Source: Marispirochaeta sp. (GTDB lineage: Bacteria; Spirochaetota; Spirochaetia; JC444; Marispirochaetaceae). Taken from it: 64,000 bases of DNA. The first letter of the stretch is position 1. Every line of letters begins with the position of its first letter. The position numbers were made by a program, and so were the translations under genes. Of this stretch, positions 9,583 through 54,858 are shown piece after piece. Below the pieces are notes generated by a model. It ran no database searches. It worked only from the letters and a program-made list of their open reading frames with translations, and was not told the DNA's origin. The DNA lies in the NCBI GenBank assembly GCA_963676835.2, contig CAXXFF010000002.1, forward strand, positions 109,344-173,343. The letters are read 5' to 3'.

Positions 9583-9670
9583 AAACGGGTAAAATCTAAA
9601 ACATTCTCAATCCGGAGAATCATATAAGCTATACAGGTAATATCCCGGCCTTTTATTGTTGCGGATACAG

Positions 9671-21647: not shown

Positions 21648-22414
21648 ACCTTCATTGCGGCTTTCACAGAGCGGGCCATTTCGGCTGCATAGTCTGCGGT
21701 ATATTTTCTCGCAAAAAGATCCTGCCCATAGTTTTCCCCGCCACTTTCGAAACTGCCGTCTTTGTAATAACGCTTTTCTACAGGAGCATACAGATCCGCC
21801 AGCTCTTCCGAACTCAGACGATGGTAGGTATCTTCAAAAAAGAGTTTTTCCCTGTCAACTTTAGGCGTTGGCCGCCGGTTGTAGTAGTCGCCCCGGGAGT
21901 AGCCGGCAACCACAAGGGAGAGGGGAAAAACAAAGTCAGGAAGATTGAAAATCTTCCGGTGTTCTTCATAATTCTCCATGATATCTCCAATATAGCATGA
22001 GCCGAGCCCCATGGATTCAGCCGCAAGCACCGAAGTATGAGCAGCAATCATTGCATCCTGGCAGGCAAGCATAAGAAATCCCTCATCGGGAGTTGCGAAC
22101 TCTTTGCCGGTTTTAGCGGCATACTCTGCAGCACCTGAATAGTCAAGATAATCATAGAGGCGCTGACAGTCAGCCAGAAACAGCAGCACCACAGGGGCCT
22201 GGGCAATAAAGGGCTGATTGTCGCATGTCTTTGCCAGGGTGTCCTTGAGGTTCTGATCTTTTACCCGGATTACCGAGTAGAGAGCCATACTTCCGGCGGT
22301 GGGTGCATAACGCACCGCACCGAGGATCATATCTACTTTTTCTTCAGGCACCCTGCGGTCCGCAAAGGATCGCAGGGATTTGCGGTTATAAAGAAGCTTC
22401 AGAGTCTCATTCAT
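21635..22414 (-). CDS. Nitroreductase family protein
   Basis: LLYNRKSLRSF, VRYAPTAGSM, DAMIAAHTSVLAAESMGLGSCYIG. Confidence 0.8.
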   Translation of the reverse strand: MNETLKLLYNRKSLRSFADRRVPEEKVDMILGAVRYAPTAGSMALYSVIRVKDQNLKDTLAKTCDNQPFIAQAPVVLLFLADCQRLYDYLDYSGAAEYAAKTGKEFATPDEGFLMLACQDAMIAAHTSVLAAESMGLGSCYIGDIMENYEEHRKIFNLPDFVFPLSLVVAGYSRGDYYNRRPTPKVDREKLFFEDTYHRLSSEELADLYAPVEKRYYKDGSFESGGENYGQDLFARKYTADYAAEMARSVKAAMKVWQG

Positions 22415-22426
22415 TATTCGGGTATA

Positions 22427-39031: not shown

Positions 39032-40033
39032 ATGGCGTTTTTCGACCTGCCCCTGGAGGAACTTGCAATTTACCAGCCCGATGTCAAAGAACCTGATGAT
39101 TTCGATCAGTTCTGGTCGGATACTCTCTCGGAAAGCCGCAGTTTTGACTTGGATCCCCGGTTTGAGAAAAAAGATTTCGGTCTTACCCAGATAGAAACCT
39201 ACGATGTGAGTTTCCGGGGTTTTGCAGGACAGGAGATCAAAGGCTGGTTCCTGCTGCCCTCCGGAGCCGAGGGCCCTCTTCCGGGGATTGTGCAGTATAT
39301 CGGCTACGGCGGCGGCCGGGGCTTTGCCACGGACTGGCTGGGCTGGCCTGCCGCTGGTTACGGCTGTCTGGTAATGGATACCCGGGGCCAGGGATCAAAA
39401 TGGCGGAGAGGAGATACTCCCGACCTGGAACTCTCCGGCGGCAATCCCCAGTACCCGGGCTTCATGACCAGGGGTATTCTCAACCGCAATGACTATTACT
39501 ACCGCAGACTTATTACCGATGCAGTCAGAGCCGTGGAAACAATCCGCAGTCACCATAAAATTGACGGAGACAGAATTGCCCTTACAGGTATCAGCCAGGG
39601 AGGGGGTCTTTCCATTGCCGCTGCCGCCCTGGACGGAAAAGTTACCGCCGCAATGCCGGATGTTCCCTTTCTCTGCCATTTCCGCCGGGCATGCACCATT
39701 ACCGATATGCTACCCTATAAGGAGATCGCCGAGTTCTGCCACACCCACCGGGATAAAGAAGAGATAGTCTTCAACACATTGAACTATTTTGACAACCTCC
39801 ATTTTGCCAGACGGGCAGAGATGCCCGCGCTCTTTTCCACCGCCCAGATGGACCAGATATGCCCTCCTTCAACTGTCTATGCCGCCTATAACAGCTGGCG
39901 GGGAAAGAAAGAGATACGGACATATACCTTTAACGGTCACGAAGGGGGAGAAAGCTATCAGTTTCTCGAGCAGCTCTCTTTCCTGTCAGGAATGGCAAAA
40001 ATGACAAAAGCTGCCGGGCCAAACGGACAGTGA
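39032..40033 (+). CDS. CE7 acetyl esterase (acetylxylan esterase / cephalosporin-C deacetylase family)
   Basis: [25 protein letters not shown], nucleophile elbow [21 protein letters not shown], and His in FNGHEGG. Confidence 0.88.
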
Positions 40034-40380
40034 CAAAGGACTCTCTTCCGGGACTGCTGTTTCCGGTACTTACCGTTGCCCTACTGGCGGCAGGTCAGGT
40101 TTCCGCAAAATACGGTGCCTCCCTTAAAGCCGCTGGCAGCGGAGGTCTTCTCTATCTGCTCATTTCATACGGATGCTATATGCTCAGGGGAATTACCTGG
40201 GCAGGGACGCTGCGCCGCATGCCGGTAAGCCGGGCATACCCCTTACTGGCCGCTGGATATCCTCTTATTCTCATCCTTTCATTTGCGATTTTCCGGGAAG
40301 AGTTAAATGCCGTAAAAGCTGTGGGCGCCGCTTTCATTACCCTGGGAGTCATTCTTGCCGGAGCATCTTCTGATGAATAG
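40030..40380 (+). CDS. SMR/EamA-like small membrane protein, ArnE-like flippase subunit
   Basis: 116 aa, 4 TMS-like. The GTG start overlaps the esterase stop (GTGA). Confidence 0.65.
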
Positions 40381-40735
40381 CTGTACAGCCGCCGCAGAAG
40401 TAATTCTCACCGGGATAATAACCTCAACAGCACAGATCCTGCTGCGCCAGGCCGCCCCGAAGATTGTCTTTAACCGGGGACCGGTGAGTTTCATTGCTTC
40501 TGTTATCAATCCGCGTCTTGTAATCGGCGTATGTCTTGCCGCCGGGGCGCCACTGCTTTATTTTCATGCCCTCCAGACCCTTCCACTCTCCCTGGCCTTC
40601 GGCCTTTCAGCCCTCTCCTATATATGGGTACCCCTGGGAGGATGTCTCGTTCTCCGGGAACGCATTAACCGCCGGCGCCTTCTGGGAACTGCCGGCATCA
40701 TCACCGGACTGCTGATCTGGAGTATCGGGCTTTGA
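40373..40735 (+). CDS. SMR/EamA-like small membrane protein, ArnF-like flippase subunit
   Basis: About 120 aa, 4 TMS-like. The ATG at 40373 overlaps the preceding stop by 8 nt. Confidence 0.65.
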   Translation: MNSCTAAAEVILTGIITSTAQILLRQAAPKIVFNRGPVSFIASVINPRLVIGVCLAAGAPLLYFHALQTLPLSLAFGLSALSYIWVPLGGCLVLRERINRRRLLGTAGIITGLLIWSIGL

Positions 40736-41481
40736 AAATTACCCTGGTTATTCCCACATTTAACGGCTCCGAAGAGCTCAAGCGGCTTATGGAACAGGTG
40801 GAAGCAGTACTCGAACAGTCAGACTTTGCGGATTACGAAATAGTCCTGGTGGATGACGGAAGCTGCGGGGAATACCGGCTCTTTATTGAAGACAAACTGA
40901 TGCCGGAGCACCCCTGCCTGAGGGTACTCTACCTCCAGGGGAACTATGGGCAACAGCTTGCAACTATTACCGGACTAGCTCATGCCCGGGGAGATATAAT
41001 AGCCACCATGGATGATGACCTGGAACACCCCCCGGCACAGCTGACCACATTAATACAAAGTATCCGGGAAGGCAGCGACCTTGCTTATGGAATTGCCGAA
41101 ATTTCCTACGGTTCGCTGCTGAGAAAGTGGGGAGCCCTTCTCAGAGACCAGGTGTTTCGCCGCGTACTCAGGGTCCCTGCGGGGATACGGGTTTCAAGCT
41201 TCAGAGCCATGACCCGGGAGCTCGCCCTGGCGGTTATCGCCGGCCCCTGCCCCTGGCCCTACTTTTCCGCCATGGCCGTACGCCGCCATCCCCGTATTGC
41301 AAATATCGCCATGGATTTTCCCCGCAGAACCGACGGCAGGCAGAGAATTCTCCCTCTTGCCTTACTTCTGCTTAGAATCCTCCTGGCCTATTCTCTCCCG
41401 GGAGCAAAAAAGGCTCCACCGGTCAAGCTGCCTCCCCATGCGGAAATATTCTGCTCCCCCGCAGCGGGAGAGCTGCCGTGA
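40732..41481 (+). CDS. Family 2 glycosyltransferase (ArnC/GtrB/DPM1-like polyprenyl-phosphate glycosyltransferase)
   Basis: ITLVIPTFNGSE, EIVLVDDGS, IATMDDDLEHPP (DxD/ED region). The TTG start overlaps the preceding stop (TTGA). Confidence 0.85.
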   Translation: MKITLVIPTFNGSEELKRLMEQVEAVLEQSDFADYEIVLVDDGSCGEYRLFIEDKLMPEHPCLRVLYLQGNYGQQLATITGLAHARGDIIATMDDDLEHPPAQLTTLIQSIREGSDLAYGIAEISYGSLLRKWGALLRDQVFRRVLRVPAGIRVSSFRAMTRELALAVIAGPCPWPYFSAMAVRRHPRIANIAMDFPRRTDGRQRILPLALLLLRILLAYSLPGAKKAPPVKLPPHAEIFCSPAAGELP

Positions 41482-42722
41482 GTACAATCCTTGTATTGGG
41501 AGGCGGAAGCAGTCAGTTTTCGGGAATCCACCGCTGCCGCGAAATGGGACACCGGGTTATTGTTGCGGATATAAACGCGAATGCCCCGGGCTGTGCCCTT
41601 GCCAATGGCTTTGCGGAAGCCAGTACCTTTGATCCGATAGGGGTTATCCAGGCGGCAAAAAAACACAGGGCCGACGGGATTCTCACCATGGGAAGCGACC
41701 AGCCGGTCCTCACCCAGGCCATTGCAGCGGCCGAGCTGGGACTGCCGTCATTCCTTTCTCCGGAAGCAGCCCTGGCGGCAACCAATAAAAAAGCGATGAA
41801 GCTTCCACTCCGGTCGGCAGGCGTTCCGCTTGCCCCCTTTGATATCCTTTCAGCCGGAATCCGGCGGGTACCGGAGTCAATTAAACTCCCGGCAGTTATG
41901 AAACCCCTGGACAGCCAGGGCCAGCGGGGTATTTTTTACCTTACCCGGAGGGAGATTCCCCGGGAAAACATAGAGGAAACCCTCTCCTATTCGAGGCAGA
42001 CGGAATTTATAGTAGAAGAGTTTTATCCCGGAGGAGAGGTTACCCTCTCCGGCTGGCTCTGCGGGGGAGAACTGCAGGTGTTCAGTATCACCGACCGGGT
42101 AACCCGCCACCTGCTGCCCCGGCTGGGGGTTTGTTTTGCCCACCGTTTTCCCAGCATGTATGCAGACAGGAGAGCTGATATTACCGCTGTCGCCGAGGAC
42201 GCACTCAAGACCCTGAACATAACGGAAGGACCGGTTTACATACAGCTTTTTGTCGGCCCGGAAGGAATCGTTATTAACGAAGTAGCCTGCCGCCTTGGCG
42301 GTGCCTACGAGGATGAGTTTATACCTCTTATAACAGGTATAGATATCCTTGATCTGCTCATCCGGGGCAGCCTGGGTGAAAAAATACTGCCGGAAGAGAT
42401 TCGCCCTGCAATAACCAGCCCTCCGGCAGTGACTGTACCACTGCTCTTCTGCCGTCCGGGAAAAATAGATCACTGGCAGGGAACAGCTGAAGCCGCAGCA
42501 ATTCCAGGGATAGTGAATTATACACCGATTCTGCCGGCAGGCACCGTTATCGGCAACACGGAAAACTCTACCCAGCGGGCAGCCTACGCAATTATCAGCA
42601 GCCCCACTCCGGCGGAGGCAAACCTTTCTGTAGAGGAGTTTTTCCGCACCGCAGGCCCTGTTGATGAAGAAGAAAACCCCATGTTTATCGATTCCCGCCA
42701 TGAGATGTGCTTTCCTTTTTAG
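41478..42722 (+). CDS. ATP-grasp domain ligase
   Basis: ILVLGGGSSQ, NKKAMK, LPAVMKPLDSQGQRGIF, VEEFYPGGEVTLSGW, INEVACRLGG. The GTG start overlaps the GT2 stop (GTGA). Confidence 0.8.
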   Translation: MSTILVLGGGSSQFSGIHRCREMGHRVIVADINANAPGCALANGFAEASTFDPIGVIQAAKKHRADGILTMGSDQPVLTQAIAAAELGLPSFLSPEAALAATNKKAMKLPLRSAGVPLAPFDILSAGIRRVPESIKLPAVMKPLDSQGQRGIFYLTRREIPRENIEETLSYSRQTEFIVEEFYPGGEVTLSGWLCGGELQVFSITDRVTRHLLPRLGVCFAHRFPSMYADRRADITAVAEDALKTLNITEGPVYIQLFVGPEGIVINEVACRLGGAYEDEFIPLITGIDILDLLIRGSLGEKILPEEIRPAITSPPAVTVPLLFCRPGKIDHWQGTAEAAAIPGIVNYTPILPAGTVIGNTENSTQRAAYAIISSPTPAEANLSVEEFFRTAGPVDEEENPMFIDSRHEMCFPF

Positions 42723-42760
42723 TGTTATTTCTTAACGCCTTTCTCCGATCTCTCCGCTCT

Positions 42761-42796
42761 CTTCGATCACTTCGATAACTTCGATAACTTCGATCT
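42761..42796. repeat. Four copies of CTTCGAT at a strict 9-bp period
   Basis: cttcgatca cttcgataa cttcgataa cttcgatct, in the 136-nt gap between the ATP-grasp gene and the ABC substrate-binding gene. Confidence 0.9.
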
Positions 42797-42857
42797 TTAT
42801 GTTTCCGGCCCGGGAACTCTTTACTGCCGCCATGCCGAAAAGGTATTCTGAAGTTCT

Positions 42858-43868
42858 ATGACAGGATTTCCGGGTTTAACCAGCAGCTTTACAAGCTTTA
42901 CGTCAGGCAAATTATTTCGAATCATTACCTCTGCTCTGATACTTCTTTCAGCAGGACTTTTTTTCAGCTGTTCCGGTAAAGACAGCACCCAAACCCTGCG
43001 TATCGCAGAGCAGTATGGTCTGGCCTATGCTCCCCTTCAGCTTATCCGCCTGGAGAAACAGCTTGAAGAAGCAGGAATAAAGACGGAATGGGTCAAACTG
43101 ATCAACACCGCCTCCATCCGGGAAGCCATGCTGGCCGGCAGGGTGGATATCGGCTTTATGGGGATTCCCCCGTTTCTCATCGGCCGGGATAAAGGTATGG
43201 ACTGGAAGATTTTCACCGGACTCTGCCGGGCGCCCCTGGGGCTGGTCAGCCGCAACAGGGAACTCAACAGCCTCGCAGACTTAAGAGCGGAAGACAGAAT
43301 AGCCCTTCCCCAGCCGGGAAGTATTCAGCATATTCTTCTCTCCATGGCCGCCGAAAGGGAACTGGGGGACAGCCGCCGCTTCGACTCCAGGCTGGTTACC
43401 CTCTCCCACCCCGACGGATTTTCCGCACTCTCGAAGGGCAGCGGCATCAGCGCCCACTATACATCGCCCCCCTATCTGTTCGAGGAGCTTAAACTTAAGG
43501 GAGCACGACTGCTTTCGGACGGAGAAACAGCCTTCGGCGGCCCTTTTACCTTTATTGTGGGAGTTGCCCGGGGAAATCTGTCTATGGAAAAACAGAAACT
43601 GCTGCGGAACTTCAATCGTATTCTAATAGCAGCCATGGAACGTTTTGAATCAGATCCTGAAAGCACCATACAAACTCTGAAATCAGAATACGCCATTTCC
43701 GAGTCCCTGCTCACTGAGTACCTCCTATCCGAAGGGCTTGAATACACTCCGGAAATTCTGGGAGTAGAACGGTTTCAGGATTTTATGTACACCTCAGCGT
43801 TGATAGAATCTTCTCCGGCGAAAATTGATTCACTTATCCTGAAAGTGGCCGGAGAAGTACAGCAGTGA
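42858..43868 (+). CDS. NitT/TauT-family ABC substrate-binding lipoprotein (NMT1/SsuA-like)
   Basis: Lipobox FFSCSG. The PBP type-2 pattern is LRIAEQYGLAYAPL..AGRVDIGFMGIPPF. Confidence 0.75.
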   Translation: MTGFPGLTSSFTSFTSGKLFRIITSALILLSAGLFFSCSGKDSTQTLRIAEQYGLAYAPLQLIRLEKQLEEAGIKTEWVKLINTASIREAMLAGRVDIGFMGIPPFLIGRDKGMDWKIFTGLCRAPLGLVSRNRELNSLADLRAEDRIALPQPGSIQHILLSMAAERELGDSRRFDSRLVTLSHPDGFSALSKGSGISAHYTSPPYLFEELKLKGARLLSDGETAFGGPFTFIVGVARGNLSMEKQKLLRNFNRILIAAMERFESDPESTIQTLKSEYAISESLLTEYLLSEGLEYTPEILGVERFQDFMYTSALIESSPAKIDSLILKVAGEVQQ

Positions 43869-44659
43869 AAATCTCAGGATTTCTTAATTCCCTGAAAAAA
43901 ACTGCAGTCCGCCTCCTGATTTTCCTGCTGACAGGTCTGATCTGGGAAATCACCCGCAGGGCAAGCGGAGCACCGGAGGCACTGTTTCCTTCAATACCTG
44001 CAATTCTGAACCGACTTGCCATAGCCGTATTCAATGAGGATCTGAAAGAGCAGATACTCTTTTCCCTGATACTTATCGGTTCAGGCCTTGCCGCCGGTTC
44101 TGTAACCGCCGCCTTTCTGGTTTTCCTTGCAGAACTGCACCCCGTCATGGGAAAGGCAGTTGATACCGCTGCCGCTGTATTCCACCCCCTGCCGGGGATT
44201 GCCCTCCTGCCGGTGGTAATACTCTGGTTCGGCACCGGAATTCCTGCAGTACTTATTATAATCGTCCACTCTGTTCTCTGGCCCCTGACGGTGAATCTGA
44301 AAAGCGGGTATGAAAACCTGCCAGCCACATGGAGAATGGTGGCGGATATCTTCGGGTATTCCCCTGCAGAACGGTTTTTCCGCATAACCCTTCCCGGCTC
44401 CTTTCCTTTTGTGCTGTCAGGCCTCAAGATCGCCTGGGCAAGAGCCTGGCGGGCCCTCATCAGCGCCGAAATGGTTTTTGGTGCCGTAGCCTATGCCGGA
44501 GGGATCGGCTGGTTTATTTTTTCCCGGAGGATATTCATGGATACCGCCGGCATCTTTGCGGGGATTCTGGTGGTAGTCGCCCTGGGACTCATTGTCGAGC
44601 AGGGCCTGTTCCGCCCCCTTGAAAAAGCCGCCCGGAAAAGATGGGGAACCCTGCCGTGA
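43865..44659 (+). CDS. NitT/TauT-family ABC permease
   Basis: EAA-loop region ADIFGYSPAERFFRITLPGSFPFVLSGLKIAWARAWRALISAEM. Confidence 0.85.
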   Translation: MKISGFLNSLKKTAVRLLIFLLTGLIWEITRRASGAPEALFPSIPAILNRLAIAVFNEDLKEQILFSLILIGSGLAAGSVTAAFLVFLAELHPVMGKAVDTAAAVFHPLPGIALLPVVILWFGTGIPAVLIIIVHSVLWPLTVNLKSGYENLPATWRMVADIFGYSPAERFFRITLPGSFPFVLSGLKIAWARAWRALISAEMVFGAVAYAGGIGWFIFSRRIFMDTAGIFAGILVVVALGLIVEQGLFRPLEKAARKRWGTLP

Positions 44660-45393
44660 AGAACCTTCTCTCCTTCAGAAACACCCGTATTGAATATCCC
44701 GGAAGCCCTCGGCCGGTACTGCAGAATTTTTCCATGGAGCTTAAACAGGGAGAACTCCTCTGCGTTCTCGGACCATCGGGCTGCGGAAAATCCACCCTGC
44801 TTAAAGCCGCTGCAGGCCTTATCTCTCCCGCAAAGGGCAGTATAACTCTATCACCGTCATCTCCGGAGAGGCTGTACCCGCGGGTTCTGGTACTTCAGCA
44901 GGAGGATCAGCTCTTTCCATGGATGACTGTAGAGGATAATGCCGGCATTCCCTTGAAAAGAGGGGGAAACAAAAACTGGCGGCAGAAAACACGGGAAATC
45001 CTTGCATCCCTTTCCATGGGGGATGCCGCCGGACTCTATCCGCACCAGCTTTCCGGGGGTATGCGGCAGAGGGCGGTCCTGGCCAGGGCCCTTGCCGCGG
45101 AACCGGAACTGCTGATGCTCGATGAACCCTTTGCCCATCTGGATGCCTCGGTGCGCTCATCCCTGCAGCATCTGGTAACAGATATCTGGCAGCAAAAAGA
45201 GAGCATGCCTTCCACGATTCTGTTTGTTACCCACGATATACAGGAAGCCCTGGTTCTGGCCTCAAGGATTCTGCTGTTTGACAGTAAAGGAAATATCCGG
45301 GAAGACAGAATAATAGAACTCCCCCGTCCGCGGGATCCCTTTGACGAAGAACTTGTTGCCATGGTCAGGGAAATCAGGAATCTCCTGGACTGA
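44641..45393 (+). CDS. NitT/TauT-family ABC ATP-binding protein
   Basis: Walker [10 protein letters not shown], signature LSGGMRQR, Walker B LLMLDEPF. Confidence 0.9.
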   Translation: MGNPAVKNLLSFRNTRIEYPGSPRPVLQNFSMELKQGELLCVLGPSGCGKSTLLKAAAGLISPAKGSITLSPSSPERLYPRVLVLQQEDQLFPWMTVEDNAGIPLKRGGNKNWRQKTREILASLSMGDAAGLYPHQLSGGMRQRAVLARALAAEPELLMLDEPFAHLDASVRSSLQHLVTDIWQQKESMPSTILFVTHDIQEALVLASRILLFDSKGNIREDRIIELPRPRDPFDEELVAMVREIRNLLD

Positions 45394-46963
45394 AATCGAG
45401 CCGGTAGATTCGAACCTTCCACTCTTCCCGGTAGCGGTAGGCAGCAATCCTCATCCCGTAACCCGGGCTGGAAAACTCTTTTATAAGAGTGCCATCATTT
45501 TTCAGCAGCTCCTTCATTTCCGGATACCAGTAGGCAATATTGCCGTACAGTACATTCCACACCGGTCTGCGGGAATAAATAAAATCCAGCTCATCCGACA
45601 GAATTACATACTCTACAGACCGTTCCTTCAGGTACTCATCCAGACTGATTCCCGCAGAGCGGAGTTCCGCAAGATTTCTCCAGTCATAAAACTGCCCACC
45701 CGTCCCGGTCACATATTCGCCATAAAGATTACTCACTACTGTAGAATCCGCAGACACCACATCCCGGATCTCTCCCATAAAGGACTGAAAGGACTCGGTC
45801 TCCCGGGAAATATCAGACAGGGAAAACCGGATATTTGCGGCCAAAAGAAGAACCGGAATCACCAGCAGGAGTTTTTTCAGCATGAAATTCCCCGCAGGAA
45901 GAAGCGCACCGTAGATCCCCAGGTAAAAGAAAGGCAGGAGAAAAACGATTGAAGGCTGACTGTACTTACCAATAAGTGCCACAGCTATTGAAAAGCCCGC
46001 AAAGCCTGCCAGGGGCAGAGAATTACGGTTCCGGAAAAAATCGATAGTCAGAACCAGGGGAAACAGCAGCATCTGCAGCATAATCGGCGGAGTATGATAG
46101 GTCCCGCCTATGCGGAAAAACAGCTTTTTATAGAAAGCGGGAAGTCTCAGCCATTTAATATCCGCCGGCTCCAGAACACCCAGAGGCCTGCCGTAGGCCA
46201 GATAATCAGAAATAAACGATGCATTAAAAAGGAAGCTGAGCAGCACAAAAACCGACGCAAAAATCCCCGTAGACAGAAGAAAAAGAAGCCCCTCTTTTAG
46301 GGTCCGTTTTCTTAACCCGATTGAGACCAAAAGAAAAAGTCCTGCCGGCCAGGCAATAATAAAAGCATTGGGATGAAAACCGGCAGCAAGCCCCGTCACC
46401 GCCCCGGCAAAAAAGCCGCGCTTACCCGGGGGTAAATCATTTTTTGTCAGAAGAACCAGAACAGCAGTTTCCAGCAGAAGCAGCAGACTCTCCTGCCTGG
46501 CAAAATGGCTGCTGTAGATAAACTGAATATCCGCAGCCATTAGTAGGAGCATAAAAATTCGCAGGAATTCTGATCTTCTGTTTTCCGCCTCATTCCGCCC
46601 CTCCCCGCCATTGCCGGGAGAGATATTGTGCAGAAGACGCCAGAATAAGAGCAGACTTACTGTTCCGGCCAGAAGTGAGAGAAGCCGCACAGCAAAAAGG
46701 CTGTAGCCGAAGAGCAGAACAAAGGGTATCTGCAGCAGATGGTAGAGTATTTTTATTGCATGGGGATGCCGGGGATAAAGATCAAAGAAGTCTTCCGTTG
46801 CAGCAGGAGATCCGGCATCCATCATGGAGAGGGTAAGCCCGCTCAGCCATGGCTCATCGGTATGAACAAAAGGATAGGTATCCAGAAAAAGCAGGTTTAC
46901 GGCAAACCACGACAGAGCGATAAAAATGACTATATGAGCTTCGCGGAGTTTACAGTCGACCAT
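45374..46963 (-). CDS. GT-C fold membrane glycosyltransferase (ArnT / PMT_2 / GT39-83-like) with soluble C-terminal domain
   Basis: About 11 TMS. First-loop acidic motif FVHTDEPW, and a C-terminal soluble domain of about 150 aa. The start is 1 nt downstream of the tauB-like stop. Confidence 0.7.
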   Translation of the reverse strand: MVDCKLREAHIVIFIALSWFAVNLLFLDTYPFVHTDEPWLSGLTLSMMDAGSPAATEDFFDLYPRHPHAIKILYHLLQIPFVLLFGYSLFAVRLLSLLAGTVSLLLFWRLLHNISPGNGGEGRNEAENRRSEFLRIFMLLLMAADIQFIYSSHFARQESLLLLLETAVLVLLTKNDLPPGKRGFFAGAVTGLAAGFHPNAFIIAWPAGLFLLVSIGLRKRTLKEGLLFLLSTGIFASVFVLLSFLFNASFISDYLAYGRPLGVLEPADIKWLRLPAFYKKLFFRIGGTYHTPPIMLQMLLFPLVLTIDFFRNRNSLPLAGFAGFSIAVALIGKYSQPSIVFLLPFFYLGIYGALLPAGNFMLKKLLLVIPVLLLAANIRFSLSDISRETESFQSFMGEIRDVVSADSTVVSNLYGEYVTGTGGQFYDWRNLAELRSAGISLDEYLKERSVEYVILSDELDFIYSRRPVWNVLYGNIAYWYPEMKELLKNDGTLIKEFSSPGYGMRIAAYRYREEWKVRIYRLDFSPGDS

Positions 46964-46964
46964 A

Positions 46965-47729
46965 TCAGGCCCAGATATACTTGAGAACTTCCTCTCTCAG
47001 GGCGACAAACTCAGGTAAAGATTTTATCTCCCGGCTGTCCCGGTCGGAGTAACCGGAGCTGAACGGCGTCTCCACCTTCTGCAGAATCCGTCCGGGAAGT
47101 TCAGACATCACATAAACCTGAGTGGAGAGATAAATAGCTTCTTCAACGCTGTGAGTAATGAATAACACAGTTTTCCGGGTTTCCCTCCACAGGCTCAGGA
47201 GCTCTTCCTGAAGGTGCTCACGGGTAAGAACATCCAGCGCTCCGAAGGGTTCATCCATGAGCAGAATATCCGGATCATTGGCAAGAATCCGGGCAATGGC
47301 TACCCGCTGCTGCATTCCCCCCGAAAGCTCATAGGGCTGCATGTGGCCGAAATCCGACAAATGAACCCTGCGCAGGTTCTCCTCAACAATTCTCTTCTGC
47401 TCCGATCTGGCAACTCCCCGCATTTTCAGCCCGAAGGCGACATTCTGTTCCACATTGAGCCATGGATAGAGGGAGGGCTTCTGGAATACTATCCCCCGGT
47501 CCTTTCCGGGGGCTGTCAGGGGGGCACCCTTTTCCATAATCGTACCCCTGGTCGGGGGAAGAAACCCGCCGATAACGTTAAGCAGGGTCGACTTTCCGCA
47601 GCCCGAAGGGCCGACAATACTGATAAAATCACCCTGATTCACCGTCAGGGAAACATCCTGTACCGCGGAAAGAGGACCCTTTTTTGTCTCAAAGTCTACG
47701 GATATCCCGGAGAGTTCCAGAAGATTCAA
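46965..47729 (-). CDS. tauB: Taurine-type (NitT/TauT) ABC ATP-binding protein
   Basis: [29 protein letters not shown]. Confidence 0.85.
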
Positions 47730-47733
47730 ACTG

Positions 47734-48762
47734 CTACTGCCCCAGAGCCTCTTCTATATACTCAGGATGAAGAGCCGCCTTGAAGGCATCAATATCGGGA
47801 GACGAGATAATGGTCTGCTGGGTAACCAGAAAATCCGCAGTTGCCTTCAGCACACCGGCAAGATCTCCGATCTGCCCCTGTGTTCCCATATACCGGGAGG
47901 AGATCTGGTCTTCTCCGGTCAGCAGCACCAGACTTTTCATCTGCCGGGCAGCCTCTGCCTCGGGAATATCGAACTGACGGCTTACTGCAGCAGCAGCCTC
48001 ACTGCTGTTTTCATTGTAAAAATCTACAGCACGGATCTCGCTCTTTATATACTTTGTCACCAGGTCGGGGTATTTTTCGGCGAACCCCTTTCTAACCACG
48101 GTAATATCTCCGGTAAGGTATCCGGCCGCTGCCAGTTTTCTGGAGTAGACAACAACCTTACCGCCACTCTCAACCATTTTTGCAAGAGTGGGCTCCCAGA
48201 TAAAGCTGCCGTCAATATCTCCCCGGTGCCAGGCTGCCAGGGCATCAGGAGGCTGCATATCAAAAATATCAACAGTTTCGGGATCTACCCCTTCAAGCTC
48301 CAGGGCTGCCAGCAGATGATAATGAGTGGTTGCACCAAAGGGAACAGCAATCTTCTTGCCCGCAAGGCTCTTTACATCGGTAATGCCAGAATCGTTTTTA
48401 ACCACCAGAGCCTCATTGTCTCCGATAATATCGTGTATCCAGATCACATCGAAGGGAACCTTGTTGGCAATACCCGCAGCAATTCCACTGCTTCCGGAAA
48501 GACCGATATCAATACTTCCCGCGGCAAGGCCAGTATTGAGTTCTGATCCCGAGTTCAGCTGAACCCATTCCACCAGAATACCGGTCTCCTCTTCGAACCA
48601 ACCAAAATCCTTGGAGATTATCTGGCCGTTTGGTATGGCCTGAAATCCGATAACGATCTTTTCCGGAGCACCGGAAGCGGATTCTTTATTCCCTGCAGCT
48701 GCAGCATCAAGTGCAAACAGTGCAAGAAGAGACAGCAGTACGATTCCTTTCTTCATAGTCAA
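47734..48762 (-). CDS. tauA: TauA-like taurine/sulfonate-binding periplasmic protein
   Basis: Blocks I recognise from E. coli TauA: GDNEALVVK, GKKIAVPFGATTHYHLLAAL, QPPDALAAWHRGDIDGSFIWEP, VVRKGFAEKYPDLV. Confidence 0.8.
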   Translation of the reverse strand: MTMKKGIVLLSLLALFALDAAAAGNKESASGAPEKIVIGFQAIPNGQIISKDFGWFEEETGILVEWVQLNSGSELNTGLAAGSIDIGLSGSSGIAAGIANKVPFDVIWIHDIIGDNEALVVKNDSGITDVKSLAGKKIAVPFGATTHYHLLAALELEGVDPETVDIFDMQPPDALAAWHRGDIDGSFIWEPTLAKMVESGGKVVVYSRKLAAAGYLTGDITVVRKGFAEKYPDLVTKYIKSEIRAVDFYNENSSEAAAAVSRQFDIPEAEAARQMKSLVLLTGEDQISSRYMGTQGQIGDLAGVLKATADFLVTQQTIISSPDIDAFKAALHPEYIEEALGQ

Positions 48763-48822
48763 TCCTCTTGTTCTTTATATTTTTCTGCCCTTTATACAAG
48801 GCCTCTTATACCTGTTGGATTT

Positions 48823-49614
48823 TTATACTTTCCCTTTCCAGGGAACGATCATCAGCTCGGCTATCCGGATAATCCTGTCCAGAATTATCCCGGTTATTCC
48901 CATAACAATAATCCCCATAAACATCACATCGCCCCGTAAGAATTTTCCCGCATCAAGCACCATCCAGCCGATACCGGAACGTGCCGCCACAATCTCCGAG
49001 GAGACAAGGGTGGTGTAGGTAAATCCTATACTGACCCGCATCCCGGTGAAAATACCCGGCAGACAGGAGGGAAAAATAACATGTACTAAAGTCTTCCATT
49101 TCCCCGCCCCGAGAGACCGGGCAACATGCACTCTCTCCATGGGGACAGAGGCAACAGCCGCCATGGCATTAATAGACAAAGGAGGAAAAGCAGCCATAAA
49201 AAGAAGGGTGATCTTCGATGCATTGCCAATGCCCAGCCATATAACCAGAATAGTGTAGTACGCCAGAGGCGGAAGGGGCCGGTAGAATTCAACCAGGGGA
49301 TCAAAAACTGCCTTCACCTTTCTGCTGTAGCCCATAAACATGCCTAAGGGGATGGCCACAATACAGGCTAAAAGAAAACCGGAAATAACCCGAAACAGAC
49401 TGTCCCCTAAATGGTCCAGCAGTGTTCCTCCCCGGTACCCGTTAAGTGCGATATCCTTGAAGGCCTGAAAGACGCTGGCAGGAGTTGGGATAAAGTACTC
49501 GGGGAAAATCTTCAGACCGGCAATAACCGTCCAGGCCAGTAAAATGGCCAGAACCGACAGTACCGAGATAATAAATTCACTTATTCTTTCTTTATCGTAC
49601 TTCTTCATTCCCAT
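48823..49614 (-). CDS. tauC: Taurine-type (NitT/TauT) ABC permease
   Basis: EAA-loop ARSLGAGKWKTLVHVIFPSCLPGIFTGMRVSIGFTYTTLVSSE. Confidence 0.85.
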   Translation of the reverse strand: MGMKKYDKERISEFIISVLSVLAILLAWTVIAGLKIFPEYFIPTPASVFQAFKDIALNGYRGGTLLDHLGDSLFRVISGFLLACIVAIPLGMFMGYSRKVKAVFDPLVEFYRPLPPLAYYTILVIWLGIGNASKITLLFMAAFPPLSINAMAAVASVPMERVHVARSLGAGKWKTLVHVIFPSCLPGIFTGMRVSIGFTYTTLVSSEIVAARSGIGWMVLDAGKFLRGDVMFMGIIVMGITGIILDRIIRIAELMIVPWKGKV

Positions 49615-49650
49615 AAGCGTCCAAGTACAGGATATAACCTATAATAATAA

Positions 49651-49687
49651 AAAAAGGGGGTCAGTTCACGGAACCGACCCCTTTTTT
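49651..49687 (-). terminator. Bidirectional-looking rho-independent terminator after the yeeE-like gene
   Basis: A7 then GGGGTC agttcacggaacc GACCCC then T6. Confidence 0.7.
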
Positions 49688-49699
49688 CTTGTGCTTAAA

Positions 49700-50983
49700 T
49701 CAGTTAACGCAGCTTGCCGCCGTTTTTCTGGCAACCACGTTGCCGATGATTCCTCCGCCTGTCAGGGCTGCAAGGAAAATCCATCCCGAAAGGGAAAAGT
49801 TGGCAATGGGAGTATACAGAGCACCCACGTTGCAGCCGTTGGCAAGACGGGTTCCAAATCCCATAAAGAGACCGCCCATGGCGAAGAACACAACCTGCAA
49901 AGGCTTAACCTTAAGCTCCGAGGTGAAAGTTGCCTTGAAGGTACCTGCCAGAAGAAGAGCTATAAGAGTACCAAGCACAATGCCTATGTTCTGCACCGAA
50001 ACGGGATTAACAAAAATGGATGTTTCAAAAAAGCCTGCCGGCATATGGGTAAATGCTGCAATGGATTCTGAAGAAACTCCAAAGAGCATCAGAAGCTTGC
50101 CAAACCACATACCGTAAACAGTGGAAGCCCCCCACCCTGCTTTTGTAATACCCATAAGCAGAGAAAAGACCACGGCAATTACAATTGCCCCGGTTCGCAT
50201 CTGCCAGGGACGGACAAAAAGCATATCATAGGTCTCACTGCTGAAAAGCTTGAAGGGTTTTGCAGCTCCCCGCTCTTCAAGAAGCCTGTTCTGCTCAAGC
50301 TCTGTTCCTACACCGGAAAACCGGTTCGCAGCAATCTGCTTATCTTCATATTTCCTGGCAAGCCAGGCGACCAGAGCCGCCAGCAGCACAGTAAGAATCA
50401 CCGCACCAAGGTAACCGCTCATACCGTCCCACATAAACAGATCCGGAAGATAGACACCGCCGGCAAGCTGCTCGCCGGTAACGGTGGAAAACCAGGAATC
50501 CGTAACCCATGATGCGGTCTTCTGTACAGGAAACCCGATAAAAACTCCAAAAGCGAAGAACACCAGGGTGGCTGCTGCCCGGGGAAGTCCGGTCACCAGG
50601 TCGGTAAGTACTCCCGAAGCACAGCACGAGGAAAAGGTCATACCGAAACCGAAGGAAAGACCACCGAGGATAAGCCCCAGGTTAATAGGGTTAACCCACA
50701 GGTTGTAGCTTGTGGCGTCTACTCCGTAGAGAAAAGCCACTGATACTGCAGCAGTTCCGGCAAACATCCACATAAGTACCCGCATCAGCTTTGCTGACCC
50801 GGTTCTGTATGCCCGGTTAACGCTTCCGGCAAAGCCCATAAAGGCCCGGGTCAGGGCATAGCCGAACCCGATTCCCGCCAGCAGCCGGAAGAAGAGCATC
50901 TGGGTACCCAGAAAAGCTCCGCCGAAAATCAGTACAACTGCAATCAGGGCAAAGCCCAGAATATTCTCAATTTTACTGTTCAT
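49700..50983 (-). CDS. YeeE/YedE family sulfur-compound transporter (long, 427 aa)
   Basis: Two sulfur-transport repeats with conserved Cys motifs: FSSCCASG and LANGCNVGALY. Confidence 0.85.
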   Translation of the reverse strand: MNSKIENILGFALIAVVLIFGGAFLGTQMLFFRLLAGIGFGYALTRAFMGFAGSVNRAYRTGSAKLMRVLMWMFAGTAAVSVAFLYGVDATSYNLWVNPINLGLILGGLSFGFGMTFSSCCASGVLTDLVTGLPRAAATLVFFAFGVFIGFPVQKTASWVTDSWFSTVTGEQLAGGVYLPDLFMWDGMSGYLGAVILTVLLAALVAWLARKYEDKQIAANRFSGVGTELEQNRLLEERGAAKPFKLFSSETYDMLFVRPWQMRTGAIVIAVVFSLLMGITKAGWGASTVYGMWFGKLLMLFGVSSESIAAFTHMPAGFFETSIFVNPVSVQNIGIVLGTLIALLLAGTFKATFTSELKVKPLQVVFFAMGGLFMGFGTRLANGCNVGALYTPIANFSLSGWIFLAALTGGGIIGNVVARKTAASCVN

Positions 50984-51001: not shown

Positions 51002-52702
51002 TCAGTCAAAGTTGTAACCGGTGAGTATGGGTTCCCTTCCGCTTACCTGATCATTGTAGTATTCGAAAAAGGAAATTCCCATAAATCCGCCGGAAATATT
51101 TATTACTTCATCCCAACCGCGGTTTTTCAGCGCCATAACAGCATTGTAACTTCTCTGTCCGCTTCGGCAGTGCAGGTAAATCGGCTTGTCTTTGGGGAAC
51201 TCATCAAGCCGTTCTCTGAGCTGACTCAGGGGAATATTAACCGCACCCTTAAGATGTGACTGTTCATATTCGTAGACTTCCCGAACATCAAAGATAGCAG
51301 CCCCGCTTTCTACCAGGCCCCGGACATCGCTGACATTTACCTGCCGGAAATCATCATGGAGAAGGTTGGTTCCTACATAGCCTGCAAAGTTAACCACGTC
51401 TTTTGCGGTGCCGAAGGGGGGCGCATAACAGAGCTCAAGGTCTTTCAGATCATGGATGGTTCCGTTGAACTTGATCACCGTTGCAATTACATCGATTCTC
51501 TTGTCAACATTTCCTTTTCCAATTGCCTGGGCTCCAAGGATTTTTCCGGTGGGGATTTCATACACAAGCTTGAAATGAAGGCTCTTGCTGGAAGGCATAA
51601 GCCCGACCTTGTCTCCGGGAATAATACGTACACAGCTGTAATCGATCTTCAAACCGCTGTGCTGAATAAATCCACAGGTCAAACCAGTGGAGGCGGCATT
51701 GTAATCAAACACCTTCAGAATTGAAGATCCGATATAGCCGCGGTTATCCACATACTGCTTATTGATATGGTCCGCAACACTTCTGGCCTGTTTCTGTGCC
51801 GGTCCGGCCAGGGGAAGCTTGAAATAGTCGTCAAAAAGGTAGCTGTATACTTCAATGGCATCACCAACAGCGTAGATATCCTTGTCTACTGTCCGGTAAT
51901 TCTGGTCCACCTTCATTGCACCGGTTTTTCCGAGCTCAAGGCCGGCCTGTTTTGCAAGATCTGTTTCCGGAGAAACTCCGATTGCCATTATTACAATGTC
52001 AGTTTCGATTTTCTTGCCCGATTCAAGAAGAATCGCATTGGTATCGAAAGCGGTCACCTTGTCGTCTACTATAAGGTTTACGCCCTGATCATGAATCTCC
52101 TTGTGGAGAATCTGCACCATATCGTAATCGAGGATTCTCAGAATCTGGGGCATAGCCTCAACGAGGGTCACTTCGTAACCGGCCTCTTTCAGGTTTTCAA
52201 CCGTTTCGATTCCGATAAATCCACCGCCGATTACACTGATCTTCTTAACATCCTTATTTCTGATTGCTTTGGCAATTTTAGCAATGTCTACTACATTTCG
52301 AATGGTGTAATGATTTACCTTCTCAATACCAGGAATAGGGGGAACAATAGGTTTTCCGCCGGGAGAGAGTATCAGCTTGTCATAAGACTCGGTATAGGTC
52401 TTTCCTGTATCAAGATCGGCAACAGTGACTTCTTTGGCCTCTCTGTTAATCGCAACAACTTCATTATTTATACGTACATCAATATTGTACTGTTTCTTGA
52501 AGAGCTCAGGCGTCATAAGGACAAGATCTTCAGCCTTTTCGATCATTCCGCTCAGATGATAGGGAAGACAACAGTTGGAAAAGGATACGTTCGGACCTTT
52601 CTCAAATACAATTATCTGATCTTCTTCACTGTGTCTTCGAAGCCGTGCAGCAGCTGATGCACCTCCGGCAACACCGCCGACAACAAGCATTTTTCTTGAC
52701 AT
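51002..52702 (-). CDS. CoA-disulfide / persulfide reductase with C-terminal rhodanese domain (Npsr-like)
   Basis: VVGGVAGGASAA, active-site SFSNCCLPY, a second NAD(P)H GxGxxG (VIGGGFIGIE), and rhodanese IYLHCRSGQRS. Confidence 0.88.
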   Translation of the reverse strand: MSRKMLVVGGVAGGASAAARLRRHSEEDQIIVFEKGPNVSFSNCCLPYHLSGMIEKAEDLVLMTPELFKKQYNIDVRINNEVVAINREAKEVTVADLDTGKTYTESYDKLILSPGGKPIVPPIPGIEKVNHYTIRNVVDIAKIAKAIRNKDVKKISVIGGGFIGIETVENLKEAGYEVTLVEAMPQILRILDYDMVQILHKEIHDQGVNLIVDDKVTAFDTNAILLESGKKIETDIVIMAIGVSPETDLAKQAGLELGKTGAMKVDQNYRTVDKDIYAVGDAIEVYSYLFDDYFKLPLAGPAQKQARSVADHINKQYVDNRGYIGSSILKVFDYNAASTGLTCGFIQHSGLKIDYSCVRIIPGDKVGLMPSSKSLHFKLVYEIPTGKILGAQAIGKGNVDKRIDVIATVIKFNGTIHDLKDLELCYAPPFGTAKDVVNFAGYVGTNLLHDDFRQVNVSDVRGLVESGAAIFDVREVYEYEQSHLKGAVNIPLSQLRERLDEFPKDKPIYLHCRSGQRSYNAVMALKNRGWDEVINISGGFMGISFFEYYNDQVSGREPILTGYNFD

Positions 52703-52957: not shown

Positions 52958-53881
52958 ATGATTAGAGTTCGGAAAATATGGGCTGTCTTAATCCTTATTC
53001 CGGTGCTGCTTGTCGGCGCCTGCTCTTTTGTGGATTACGCGGACTCAGGAACCCTTATTATCACCGCTTCTGATGCTGTGGATAAAATAGAATCCGGATA
53101 CATACTGGTGGACGCTCAGCGGGCATCCTCCTATAAAAAAGAACATATTGAAAATGCGGTCAACATCGAACGCAACCAGATAATGATTAAAGAGCCTGTT
53201 GCCAACACCCTGGCCACGGGAGATATTATTGCCGATGCTGCAGGAAAAGCAGGACTCACCGAAAACTCCAACCTGCTGATCTATGACGATAACATGAACA
53301 TGGATTCCTCCCGGCTCTGGTGGACCCTGAAGATATACGACCACAAAGGGGATATACGTATTGTTTCCGGCGGCCTGCCTGCATTGAAAGCCGCAGGACT
53401 GACCGTTACAGACAAGGCTGCCACCGTAACAGCAGCTGAATATAAAGCCTCCCCGCTCAACACAGATATGCTTGCAGTAAAAGAAGATATTCAGGCCAAC
53501 ATCAACGATCCTGCCGATGGATTTGTACTGATCGATGTCAGAAGCGATGAAGAATACAATGCAGGCACCATTCCCGGTTCAATTCATATAAATCACGAAA
53601 AAAATATGTTCGTTAACGAGGATAAGGGAACAACCTTCCGGCCGGTATCCCACAATCGCATCCTCTATAAGGAACTTGGCATAACACCGGACTGTGAGAT
53701 TGTGATGTACTGCAAGAGTTCAGTCCGTGCTGCCAATACCTATGCAGCCCTGTATAACGCAGGATACCGGAACCTGAAAATATATGACGGCGCCTATCTG
53801 GAGTGGGCGGCGGAAAAACTGCCTGTGATTAAAACAGAGGTAGATGTAAAGGTAACTACATCCCAGTCAGACAACTCCTGA
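52958..53881 (+). CDS. Exported tandem-rhodanese sulfurtransferase lipoprotein
   Basis: Lipobox LVGACS. Inactive N-domain (LIYDDNMNMDSSRLWWTL) plus an active C-domain, MYCKSSVRAANTY. Confidence 0.85.
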   Translation: MIRVRKIWAVLILIPVLLVGACSFVDYADSGTLIITASDAVDKIESGYILVDAQRASSYKKEHIENAVNIERNQIMIKEPVANTLATGDIIADAAGKAGLTENSNLLIYDDNMNMDSSRLWWTLKIYDHKGDIRIVSGGLPALKAAGLTVTDKAATVTAAEYKASPLNTDMLAVKEDIQANINDPADGFVLIDVRSDEEYNAGTIPGSIHINHEKNMFVNEDKGTTFRPVSHNRILYKELGITPDCEIVMYCKSSVRAANTYAALYNAGYRNLKIYDGAYLEWAAEKLPVIKTEVDVKVTTSQSDNS

Positions 53882-53937: not shown

Positions 53938-54858
53938 ATGAAGAAATTTCTGTACTTGCTGCTTATGGCAGCCCTGGTTTTCAGTGCATGCAGCAAAAGT
54001 GAACCTGCAAGCGCAGCTGCGGAAAAACCCGCTGAGACTGCAGCTGCAGTAGAGACAGTTGATACCGTAAAGGTTGCAGCTGAAGCATATTTCGGAGATT
54101 ACCCCGGTTCCAGAATCATTCCCGCCGACAAGGTTTTCGAAGCCATGGATGCAGGAGAAGATTTCATCCTTCTCGATATCAGAAGAGCCGATGATTACGC
54201 AAAGGGTCACCTGAAAGGCGCAGTAAATGCACCCTGGGGACCTGCAATAGCAGACGCTTTAAACTGGCTGCCTGACGATGTTCCTGTATACGTCAACTGC
54301 TATACAGGTCAGACTGCAGGCCAGACTGTTGCGGTTCTCAACATTGCGGGCATTCAGGCACAGTCCATCAAATACGGATGGAACCTGGGTATTTCCAAAA
54401 CTGAGGGCTTTGACAACTATGTTGAAACCAGCGCCAATATGAGCCCCGATGCAGCGGGTGTAAAATATGATGCAGATGTAAAAGCTGCTGCTGAAGCTTT
54501 CTTCAACGCAATTCCCGACAAAGGAAGTAACATCATCGCAGCTCCTGCACTCAAGGAAAAGATGGATGCGGAAGAGCAGATGACCATAGTTTCCATCAGA
54601 CAGCCTGAAGATTATGCAAAGGGTCACATTGAAGGCGCAATCAACATTCCCTTCGGTGCCGGTATGCAGGAAAAATTCGCACAGCTTCCCACCGACGAAA
54701 AGGTTTACGTATACTGTTACTCCGGACAGACTGCAGGTCAAACTGTAGGTGTTCTGAGAATGCTTGGATACGATGCCGTATCGGTAAAAAGCGGAATGGG
54801 AACTACCGGTACCAACGGTTCCGGATGGGGCAATGAAGGCCTCCCCACTGTTCAGTAG
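53938..54858 (+). CDS. Exported tandem-rhodanese lipoprotein (both domains carry Cys)
   Basis: Lipobox VFSACS. Active-site loops VNCYTGQTAGQT and VYCYSGQTAGQT. Confidence 0.85.
   Translation: MKKFLYLLLMAALVFSACSKSEPASAAAEKPAETAAAVETVDTVKVAAEAYFGDYPGSRIIPADKVFEAMDAGEDFILLDIRRADDYAKGHLKGAVNAPWGPAIADALNWLPDDVPVYVNCYTGQTAGQTVAVLNIAGIQAQSIKYGWNLGISKTEGFDNYVETSANMSPDAAGVKYDADVKAAAEAFFNAIPDKGSNIIAAPALKEKMDAEEQMTIVSIRQPEDYAKGHIEGAINIPFGAGMQEKFAQLPTDEKVYVYCYSGQTAGQTVGVLRMLGYDAVSVKSGMGTTGTNGSGWGNEGLPTVQ

Follow-up and report, generated by a model that had tools for sequence, protein, structure and literature searches.

A GT-C glycosyltransferase gene joined to a tau-like importer operon in Marispirochaeta probably belongs to an Arn-like pathway encoded on the opposite strand

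Why should a gene for a predicted envelope glycosyltransferase form the end of what looks like an operon for a nutrient importer? This question is raised by a stretch of 64,000 nucleotides from Marispirochaeta sp. (contig CAXXFF010000002.1, positions 109,344 to 173,343; hereafter the window, in whose numbering all its positions are given), where the gene of a 529-amino-acid GT-C protein lies behind tauC-, tauA- and tauB-like genes. A first-pass annotation of the same DNA had proposed that the imported compound feeds, or regulates, the glycosylation reaction. Comparison with related loci points to a different answer: the GT-C protein is probably the terminal transferase of an Arn-like pathway, whose partner genes would lie in the operon that converges on it, and it would have been put behind the operon of a sulfur module by local rearrangement.

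The arrangement itself is as that annotation had described it. The open reading frame (ORF) coordinates are exact, the minus strand carries permease, binding protein, ATPase and 529-amino-acid gene in this order, and the GT-C start follows the ATPase stop after a single nucleotide (...gcc TGA t ATG gtc...). The intergenic spacers within the unit are 60, 4 and 1 nt. Because no Shine-Dalgarno sequence is evident before the GT-C ATG, translational coupling of GT-C to tauB is likely. A promoter or terminator at the junction, which the annotation had named as evidence that would speak against a common operon, was found neither by RNA folding, where the junction did no better than its shuffles (z = +0.31), nor by a consensus scan, which gave no promoter-like and no credible terminator-like site there, its counts being near chance and its sole convincing site being the hairpin at 49681-49657. 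Since they share one strand and a 1-nt spacer with no sign of a promoter or terminator at the junction, tauC, tauA, tauB and GT-C look like a single transcription unit, and co-transcription would be the simplest reading of an order that is conserved in the clade.

That hairpin is followed by a U-run and may act as a terminator or an attenuator. Its folding energy is -22.9 kcal/mol (z = -5.15), none of 200 shuffles was equally stable, and its position upstream of the permease gene sets the four-gene unit off from the preceding CoADR and YeeE-like genes. Hairpins of differing sequence occupy the equivalent position in five related loci (L001, L004, L009, L081 and L083). Being flanked by an A-run and a U-run (window 49640-49700), the structure looks bidirectional, with a position that is conserved and a sequence that is not. 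Between it and the start of tauC there are only about 40 nucleotides, A/T-rich and with -10-like hexamers, which would fit a very short leader or else read-through expression. A scan of the whole window with Rfam gave no riboswitch or leader.

How widely is this fusion distributed? A scan of one genome per species yielded 80 loci, in which the window proteins were located by tblastn; ORFs in these loci were called crudely (longest ORF, greedy selection), clustered into families and named with Pfam and NCBIfam, a name below its cut-off standing for a best match only. For the closest homologues eight contigs were added, two of which (L082 and L084) duplicate L081 and L083. Within this set the tauCAB-GT-C fusion is shared by the window and 11 other distinct loci, all from spirochaetes, so that the adjacency is not confined to one genome, an outcome that the first-pass annotation had taken as counting against it. 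Its view of GT-C as the terminal gene of a tau-like operon holds for the window and its nearest relatives and fails elsewhere, the fusion being absent from about 68 other loci. Stop and start are joined as TGAnATG, as TGATG, by a 4-nt overlap or across a spacer of 26-41 nt, and the same or an overlapping arrangement is seen in L001, L009, L081, L083, L085, L086 and L090. The extra contigs come from Spirochaeta isovalerica (L081, assembly GCA_014207565.1, with L082 as its copy in another source), from JGI, ENA and Logan metagenomes (L083-L086 and L090), and from the Oceanispirochaeta isolate GCA_003346715.1 (L087) with a near-identical JGI metagenome contig (L088). All have the window order, with junctions of the types TGAnATG, TGATG, 4-nt overlap or 41-nt spacer, save the metagenomic L089, where an HD-domain gene (9023-9997) is inserted between tauB and GT-C at a distance of 3 nt from the start of the latter.

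In a neighbour-joining tree of the GT-C proteins the fusion loci fall into one spirochaete subclade with a single exception, L003. The sister group of this subclade has the order RHOD> RHOD> GTC> (RHOD, rhodanese gene), and two of its loci, L005 and L007, read Perm1< YeeE< CoADR< RHOD> RHOD> GTC>. A single inversion, of the segment comprising tauB, the rhodanese pair and what lies between them, would turn the latter order into exactly that of the window. The fusion is thus a derived feature of one subclade, and we infer that it arose by local rearrangement. Amino-acid identities to the window proteins are consistent with this. For L001 they are 86-87% in the tau genes, 86-95% in the sulfur genes, 65% in GT-C and 67-76% in the converging glyco operon; for L009 the corresponding values are 80-85%, 80-86%, 56% and 38-50%. 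L004 and L002 give 76-82% and 74-81% in the sulfur genes, 46% and 49% in GT-C, and 38-46% and 33-47% in the glyco operon. Identity thus falls abruptly at the tauB/GT-C boundary, from 87% to 65% in L001 and from 82% to 56% in L009. Judged by these values, the GT-C gene evolves with the converging glyco operon and not with the tauCAB genes to which it is attached, and either the glyco genes have a much higher rate of evolution than the sulfur genes or they have been exchanged as a block.

What does the GT-C gene encode? The label given to it on first pass is borne out by the predicted fold, though Pfam falls short, PMT_2 scoring 20.1 bits against a gathering cut-off of 26.1. The protein has about 13 transmembrane (TM) helices and a C-terminal extracytoplasmic alpha/beta domain (approximately residues 390-529). 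Its AlphaFold2 model, built on the family alignment, reaches a pLDDT (predicted local distance difference test) of 91.4 and a pTM (predicted template modelling score) of 0.92, and when compared with Foldseek it retrieves GT-C enzymes at all of ranks 1-21, the first being ArnT (5F15; E 5.6e-7, TM-score about 0.5). The modelled protein has a GT-C fold with ArnT as its best structural match, and the assignment stands. Among its relatives PMT_2 is matched in 14 of 22 and PMT in 5 of 22 (E <= 1e-3). The 165 homologues, which the sources name as GT39/ArnT family, come mostly from Spirochaetales, with others from Clostridia and Halanaerobiales, and their alignment has 33 invariant columns. The first-loop motif H(S/T)DExWL, in the window H-T-D-E-P-W, includes H34, D36 and E37, each at least 90% conserved and placed in the model between TM1 (residues 2-25) and the helix 36-50. 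Linkage to ArnC-like GT2 and ArnE/F-like genes suggests that the sugar donor would be carried on polyprenyl phosphate.

These linked genes form the plus-strand operon at 40030-45393 (Table 1), which has its own importer dependent on a substrate-binding protein (SBP) and would supply the true partners of the GT-C enzyme. The PDB entries closest to its GT2 protein are three ArnC structures, followed by DPMS and GtrB, with PgfS as the second-best NCBIfam match; ArnE/ArnF-like pairs are likewise present in spirochaete loci. The binding protein, SBP2, is on sequence grounds not a taurine binder: nearly every position that contacts taurine in TauA differs across 42 orthologues (A, N, T, G/A, P, S, S and I in place of the contacts), so its ligand should be something else. 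GT-C and ATPase2 overlap at their 3' ends by 20 bp (45374-45393), and no terminator-like structure was found in this overlap on either strand (z = +0.88 and -0.26). The two converging transcripts must overlap, and antisense interference between the operons is possible. The overlap recurs, at 4-51 nt, in 28 of the 46 loci with a converging ATPase2, in two phyla.

The operon is headed in the window by an acetyl esterase gene of the AXE1/CE7 family (39032-40033; PF05448 2.7e-114), which overlaps the first ArnE/F-like gene by 4 nt. The esterase, which may provide a deacylase step, stands at this place only in the window and L001 and is outside the conserved core. Within the 135-nt spacer between the ligase and SBP2 genes lie about six tandem 9-bp units (TCTCCGATC / CTTCGATAA) at 42742-42794; none of the fetched relatives has this repeat, and in several of them the ligase gene instead overlaps that of SBP2.

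Taken together, these genes suggest a four-step pathway. First, the ATP-grasp ligase would modify a nucleotide sugar, which in Firmicute relatives would be a dTDP-4-amino-4,6-dideoxyhexose synthesized by RmlA/RmlB together with a WecE-like aminotransferase: the aminotransferase of Firmicute loci exceeds the WecE equivalog cut-off (387 vs 375), RmlB exceeds its own, and some loci have both RmlA and RmlB. Second, the ArnC-like GT2 would load the sugar onto polyprenyl phosphate; third, the ArnE/F-like pair would flip the lipid-linked sugar across the membrane; and last, the GT-C enzyme would transfer it, outside the cytoplasm, to an acceptor in the envelope. The tauCAB genes in turn are part of a module for sulfur trafficking, together with the genes for two rhodanese lipoproteins, CoADR-RHD and a YeeE-like transporter. 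Most likely, GT-C now shares a transcript and translational coupling with tauB, and so is expressed along with the sulfur module.

Several observations weigh against this reconstruction. A search of PDB sequences with the GT-C family profile found no GT-C relative, and membership of the family accordingly rests on the fold and on weak Pfam matches. The neighbour-joining tree comes without support values, and L003 departs from its clade pattern. The window was found to contain neither an aminotransferase gene nor Rml genes, so the spirochaete sugar is not indicated. In L087 and L088 the GT-C gene remains behind tauCAB with no glyco operon adjacent, which shows that the link to tau and sulfur genes can persist independently of that operon. 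As regards transcription, tauB may contain a weak internal promoter, and the sequencing runs that hold the locus are of DNA or unknown type, none of them RNA.

Is the company of sulfur genes itself meaningful? The tau-type ATPase is the upstream neighbour of GT-C in only 5 of the 74 loci in which this neighbour is visible, and a tandem-domain rhodanese gene of the rhodanese A family takes this place in 60 (47 divergent, 13 co-directional). Downstream, across the 80 loci, GT-C faces a converging ATPase2 in 46, only the permease of ATPase2 in 3 and the ATP-grasp ligase gene in 7. Six Firmicute loci have a co-directional DegT aminotransferase or GT2 gene next to GT-C with spacers of -47 to +1 nt, and GT-C therefore heads the same operon there. 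Where at least 5 kb could be seen on both sides (49 loci), a rhodanese gene was present in 47, the ATP-grasp ligase in 44, GT2 in 39, the importer-2 SBP in 32, a YeeE-type transporter in 28, CoADR-RHD in 16 and a tau-like SBP in 12, and clustering of the ORFs into families showed that tau-like genes always accompany CoADR-RHD. YeeE, TusA, TrxR-like and LysR genes occur in shuffled orders and in both orientations across Spirochaetota and Bacillota.

These data support a broader link, seen at the level of gene content, in which genes for sulfur trafficking surround the GT-C family and the Arn-like operon in two phyla; because the orders are shuffled, the adjacency would mark function and not inherited synteny. 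To this extent the looser idea contained in the first-pass annotation, that the GT-C family lies near an importer and is tied to genes for sulfur compounds, holds more widely than one genome could reveal. No account of such a cluster turned up when the literature was searched for ArnT together with ATP-grasp and rhodanese or for rdlA together with glycosyltransferase, and a connection of glycosylation to sulfur handling in two phyla appears to be undescribed. That lipid-carrier-dependent glycosylation of the Arn-like kind, with its GT-C enzyme, ArnC-like GT2, ATP-grasp ligase and dedicated importer, is functionally coupled to extracytoplasmic handling of thiosulfate and sulfur by rhodaneses in these phyla is a tentative proposal, for which we would claim no better than a minority chance.

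The rhodaneses deserve attention in this respect. Most bear lipoprotein or secretion signals and would therefore share their side of the membrane with the active site of the GT-C enzyme. Rhodanese B of the window, in which C121 and C260 are conserved, is by cluster look-up the orthologue of Halanaerobium congolense UniProt Q6Q1E1, presumably the RdlA of Ravot et al. 2005 (cited in PMC3035371). Past its lipobox it often has a tether rich in Ala, Thr, Pro and Glu (68% STPAEQ, vs 42% in rhodanese A), and many Halanaerobium rhodanese B proteins show neither lipobox nor tether in the ORFs as called. The closest PDB relatives of CoADR-RHD are 3ICR (1.5e-151), NPSR (3NTA) and the CoA-persulfide reductase 8A56. 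Rhodanese proteins have been implicated in thiosulfate reduction by Halanaerobium (PMC5497025), and reduction of thiosulfate and sulfur is also known from S. smaragdinae, a spirochaete not represented among the loci of this comparison (PMC3035371).

In five Clostridia loci (L019, L031, L040, L042 and L055) a gene for MnmH, the tRNA 2-selenouridine synthase, scoring above its NCBIfam cut-off, adjoins the rhodanese pair and the GT-C gene, with split YeeE/YedE, TusA, TrxR-thioredoxin and LysR genes nearby. In some lineages the module may handle selenium besides sulfur. A selenium-specific cluster, considered on the strength of these five loci and of the literature on YedE and LysR (PMC5322559), was rejected as not general enough. 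Homologues of DegT, RmlA, RmlB, LysR, TusA and MnmH were also sought in the window, and the only match was an unrelated TrxR-like gene at 22331-23386.

Could the adjacency be a neutral by-product of rearrangement, the GT-C gene having borrowed a promoter while its function has nothing to do with sulfur handling? The restriction of the derived fusion to one clade agrees with this, as does a GT-C divergence that follows the glyco operon and not the tau genes. But rhodanese genes flank GT-C in 60 of 74 loci and in 47 of the 49 complete ones, in both phyla and both orientations and amid shuffled YeeE, TusA, TrxR-like and LysR genes, and an adjacency that outlasts so much rearrangement usually signals a functional link. 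We regard a purely neutral origin as unlikely, though it is the alternative that fares best.

A role for the imported compound is less probable again. Here the taurine, or an analogue of it, brought in by TauCAB would be a substrate or signal for the GT-C pathway; for instance, the ATP-grasp ligase might amidate a sugar carboxylate with taurine ahead of the transfer step. The importer itself agrees with such a scheme. The best NCBIfam matches of its three proteins are to TauA, TauB and TauC, all under the equivalog cut-offs, so that the suffix "-like" is retained, and the PDB entry closest to the binding protein (SBP1) is E. coli TauA (6SSY, 2e-46). The residues by which TauA contacts taurine, including the selectivity residue Asp205, have been defined (PMC6906117). 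All eight are kept in the window protein as Q41, S71, G72, G90, E117, T145, W189 and D219, equivalent in this order to TauA Gln30, Ser60, Gly61, Gly79, Glu106, Thr132, Trp176 and Asp205. The equivalents of Gln30, Ser60, Gly61, Gly79, Glu106, Thr132 and Asp205 are conserved in its four closest orthologues too. Further points in favour are the tight or overlapping stop/start junctions with which the fusion has been kept in the window and 11 other loci, its persistence in L087 and L088 where the glyco operon is not adjacent, the amine or carboxylate partner that an ATP-grasp ligase requires, and the lack of an aminotransferase gene in spirochaete clusters.

The wider pattern fits poorly. The fusion is derived, limited to one subclade and missing from the some 68 loci outside it; the tau-like SBP is found in only 12 of the 49 complete loci, where it stands beside CoADR-RHD and accompanies this gene and the YeeE-like one, not GT-C. 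GT-C divergence tracks the glyco operon, and the ligase shares its operon with another importer, whose SBP does not have the taurine residues. In Firmicutes, moreover, orthologous ligases lie beside a WecE-like aminotransferase, which points to an amino-sugar acceptor and not to an imported amine. The first-pass proposal that the imported compound feeds glycosylation is not supported; taurine is unneeded to explain the fusion, and we consider its involvement improbable. The tauCAB-like genes, taken jointly with the explanation that we favour and rated as highly, are predicted to encode a genuine TauABC-type importer of taurine or a close analogue. It may even carry, to speculate, a taurine-type sulfane carrier (thiotaurine or hypotaurine) instead of nutrient taurine. 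By comparison with the closest relative, L001, the second ATG (49608) is the likelier start of the permease, and the start of the binding protein is more likely the ATG at 48756. In Firmicute orthologues of SBP1, from Halanaerobiales loci (e.g. L013, L018, L029 and L079), Gln30 is replaced by Leu and Asp205 by Asn with the other six contacts kept, and their ligand may differ from the spirochaete one.

Least probable, and to our mind doubtful, is that GT-C is a protein O-glycosyltransferase acting on the neighbouring rhodanese lipoproteins in the manner of actinobacterial Ppm1/Pmt or Streptococcus mutans Pgf, for although the GT39 name, the PMT_2 and PMT matches of relatives, the PgfS match of GT2, the composition of the rhodanese B tether and the near-obligate rhodanese neighbours would suit it, the best fold match is ArnT with PMT structures only at ranks 20-21 (TM-score 0.33-0.46), and the tether and lipobox are missing from many Halanaerobium rhodanese B ORFs as called.

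Table 1. Positions and assignment of the window features discussed in the text
Feature	Position	Strand	Basis or remark
ArnE/ArnF-like flippase pair, two overlapping small EamA-type genes	40030-40380, 40355-40735	+	NCBIfam ArnF 1.4e-11, ArnE 2.8e-9, below cut-off
ArnC-like GT2, predicted polyprenyl-phosphate sugar transferase	40732-41481	+	PF00535 2e-24; best NCBIfam match ArnC
ATP-grasp ligase, L-amino-acid-ligase type	41478-42722	+	LAL_C2 1.2e-11, ATP-grasp_4; PDB 4DIM, 4WD3
Importer-2 lipoprotein binding protein (SBP2), distant SsuA/NMT1 family	42858-43868	+	TIGR01728 2.4e-20
Importer-2 permease	43865-44659	+	PF00528; position conserved
Importer-2 ABC ATPase (ATPase2)	44641-45393	+	converges on GT-C gene
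529-aa (amino acid) ArnT-like GT-C glycosyltransferase	45374-46963	-	fold, conservation
tauB-like stop TGA, spacer base and GT-C start ATG	46961-46967	-	TGA 46967-46965, ATG 46963-46961
TauB-like ABC ATPase	46965-47729	-	NF008421 4.6e-84, 282 bits vs cut-off 357
TauA-like periplasmic binding protein	47734-48762	-	TIGR01729 (taurine_ABC_bnd) 1e-69, 235 vs cut-off 304
TauC-like permease	48823-49614	-	NCBIfam NF007545 3e-66, 224 vs cut-off 342
Strong hairpin with U-run, terminator or attenuator	49657-49681	-	between YeeE-like gene and permease; 11-bp stem
Fused YeeE/YedE-type sulfur transporter	49700-50983	-	PF04143 8e-50; weak match to S. thermophila YeeE 6LEO
CoA-disulfide/persulfide reductase with C-terminal rhodanese domain (CoADR-RHD)	51002-52702	-	Pfam Pyr_redox_2 and Rhodanese
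Rhodanese lipoprotein A, tandem domains, one CKSSVR catalytic loop, lipobox	52958-53881	+	PF00581 1e-32
Rhodanese lipoprotein B, two CY(T/S)GQTAGQ loops	53938-54858	+	PF00581 6e-27

If the coupling of glycosylation to sulfur handling is true, glycan modification of the envelope or of the rhodaneses would be needed for, or co-regulated with, the sulfur module, and the clade of the window would have hard-wired this coupling by fusing GT-C to the tauCAB operon. A functional coupling would join envelope glycosylation by GT-C enzymes with dissimilatory or detoxifying sulfur metabolism in anaerobic fermenters; the hosts include Halanaerobium, a genus implicated in the sulfide that is produced in hydraulically fractured shale wells (PMC5497025). 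Likewise, an Arn-type pathway in which an ATP-grasp ligase and a dedicated importer replace ArnA and ArnD would imply a new N-acylated amino-sugar decoration. As for method, the locus illustrates how what a single genome shows as an operon fusion can be a rearrangement specific to one clade, with the real partners of the GT-C gene on the other strand. Unrelated to these genes, the minus strand of the window also carries at 30807-35729 an ORF of 1640 amino acids, an unusually large fusion of starch-synthase (GT5) and GT1 domains with a weak alpha-amylase match.

How does the locus compare with known systems? With TauABC(D) of E. coli it shares binding protein, permease and ATPase, each with a Tau protein as best match, and every TauA contact including Asp205. 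However, the scores stay below the equivalog cut-offs, two contacts are changed in the Firmicute orthologues, the gene order is C-A-B and not A-B-C, no tauD was found among the ORFs examined, and the genes lie amid those for CoADR-RHD, the YeeE-like transporter and the rhodaneses with GT-C at the end. Modules of rhodanese and CoA-persulfide reductase, such as those of the rdlA type in Halanaerobium, CoADR-RHD of Bacillus anthracis, NPSR of Shewanella and CoAPR of Enterococcus faecalis, resemble it in the 3ICR match of its reductase, in the orthology of rhodanese B with Q6Q1E1 and in hosts that include thiosulfate- or sulfur-reducing fermenters, e.g. Halanaerobium (PMC5497025); they differ in that no published account found mentions a linked GT-C or Arn-like glycosylation operon. 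Systems of the Gtr type (GtrA/GtrB/GtrC; CsbB/GtcA/YfhO), Ppm1/Pmt and S. mutans Pgf likewise combine a GT2 synthase of polyprenyl-phosphate sugar, a small flippase and a GT-C enzyme, and the window GT2 matches GtrB and PgfS and the family is called GT39 by the sources; the window system, by contrast, adds a ligase and an importer, and its flippase is of the ArnE/F and not of the GtrA type.

The closest counterpart is the Arn pathway of E. coli and Salmonella (pmrHFIJKLM, encoding ArnB, ArnC, ArnA, ArnD, ArnT, ArnE and ArnF). The terminal GT-C transferase best matches ArnT, the GT2 has ArnC as its nearest solved relatives, the small EamA-type pair best matches ArnE/ArnF, and a DegT-family aminotransferase takes part in the Firmicute versions. 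The logic would be common to both: an amino sugar is modified as its nucleotide, loaded on polyprenyl phosphate, flipped and transferred outside. Nevertheless, the Arn equivalog cut-offs are not reached (ArnC 73 bits vs 529, ArnE 37 vs 92, ArnF 45 vs 99), and the Firmicute aminotransferase is WecE-like, fitting a dTDP-4-amino-4,6-dideoxyhexose, and not ArnB (147 vs 631). Where N-acylation would occur there is an ATP-grasp ligase instead of ArnA (formyltransferase/decarboxylase) and ArnD, neither of which was found in the window cluster or among the conserved families of the 80 loci. The window operon, unlike arn, has an SBP-dependent ABC importer embedded in it, and its GT-C gene, on the opposite strand, is either fused with sulfur genes or has them at its flank. 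Finally, the GT-C family is also found in Clostridia such as Desulfitobacterium. Since these are monoderm, lipid A is unlikely to be the universal acceptor.

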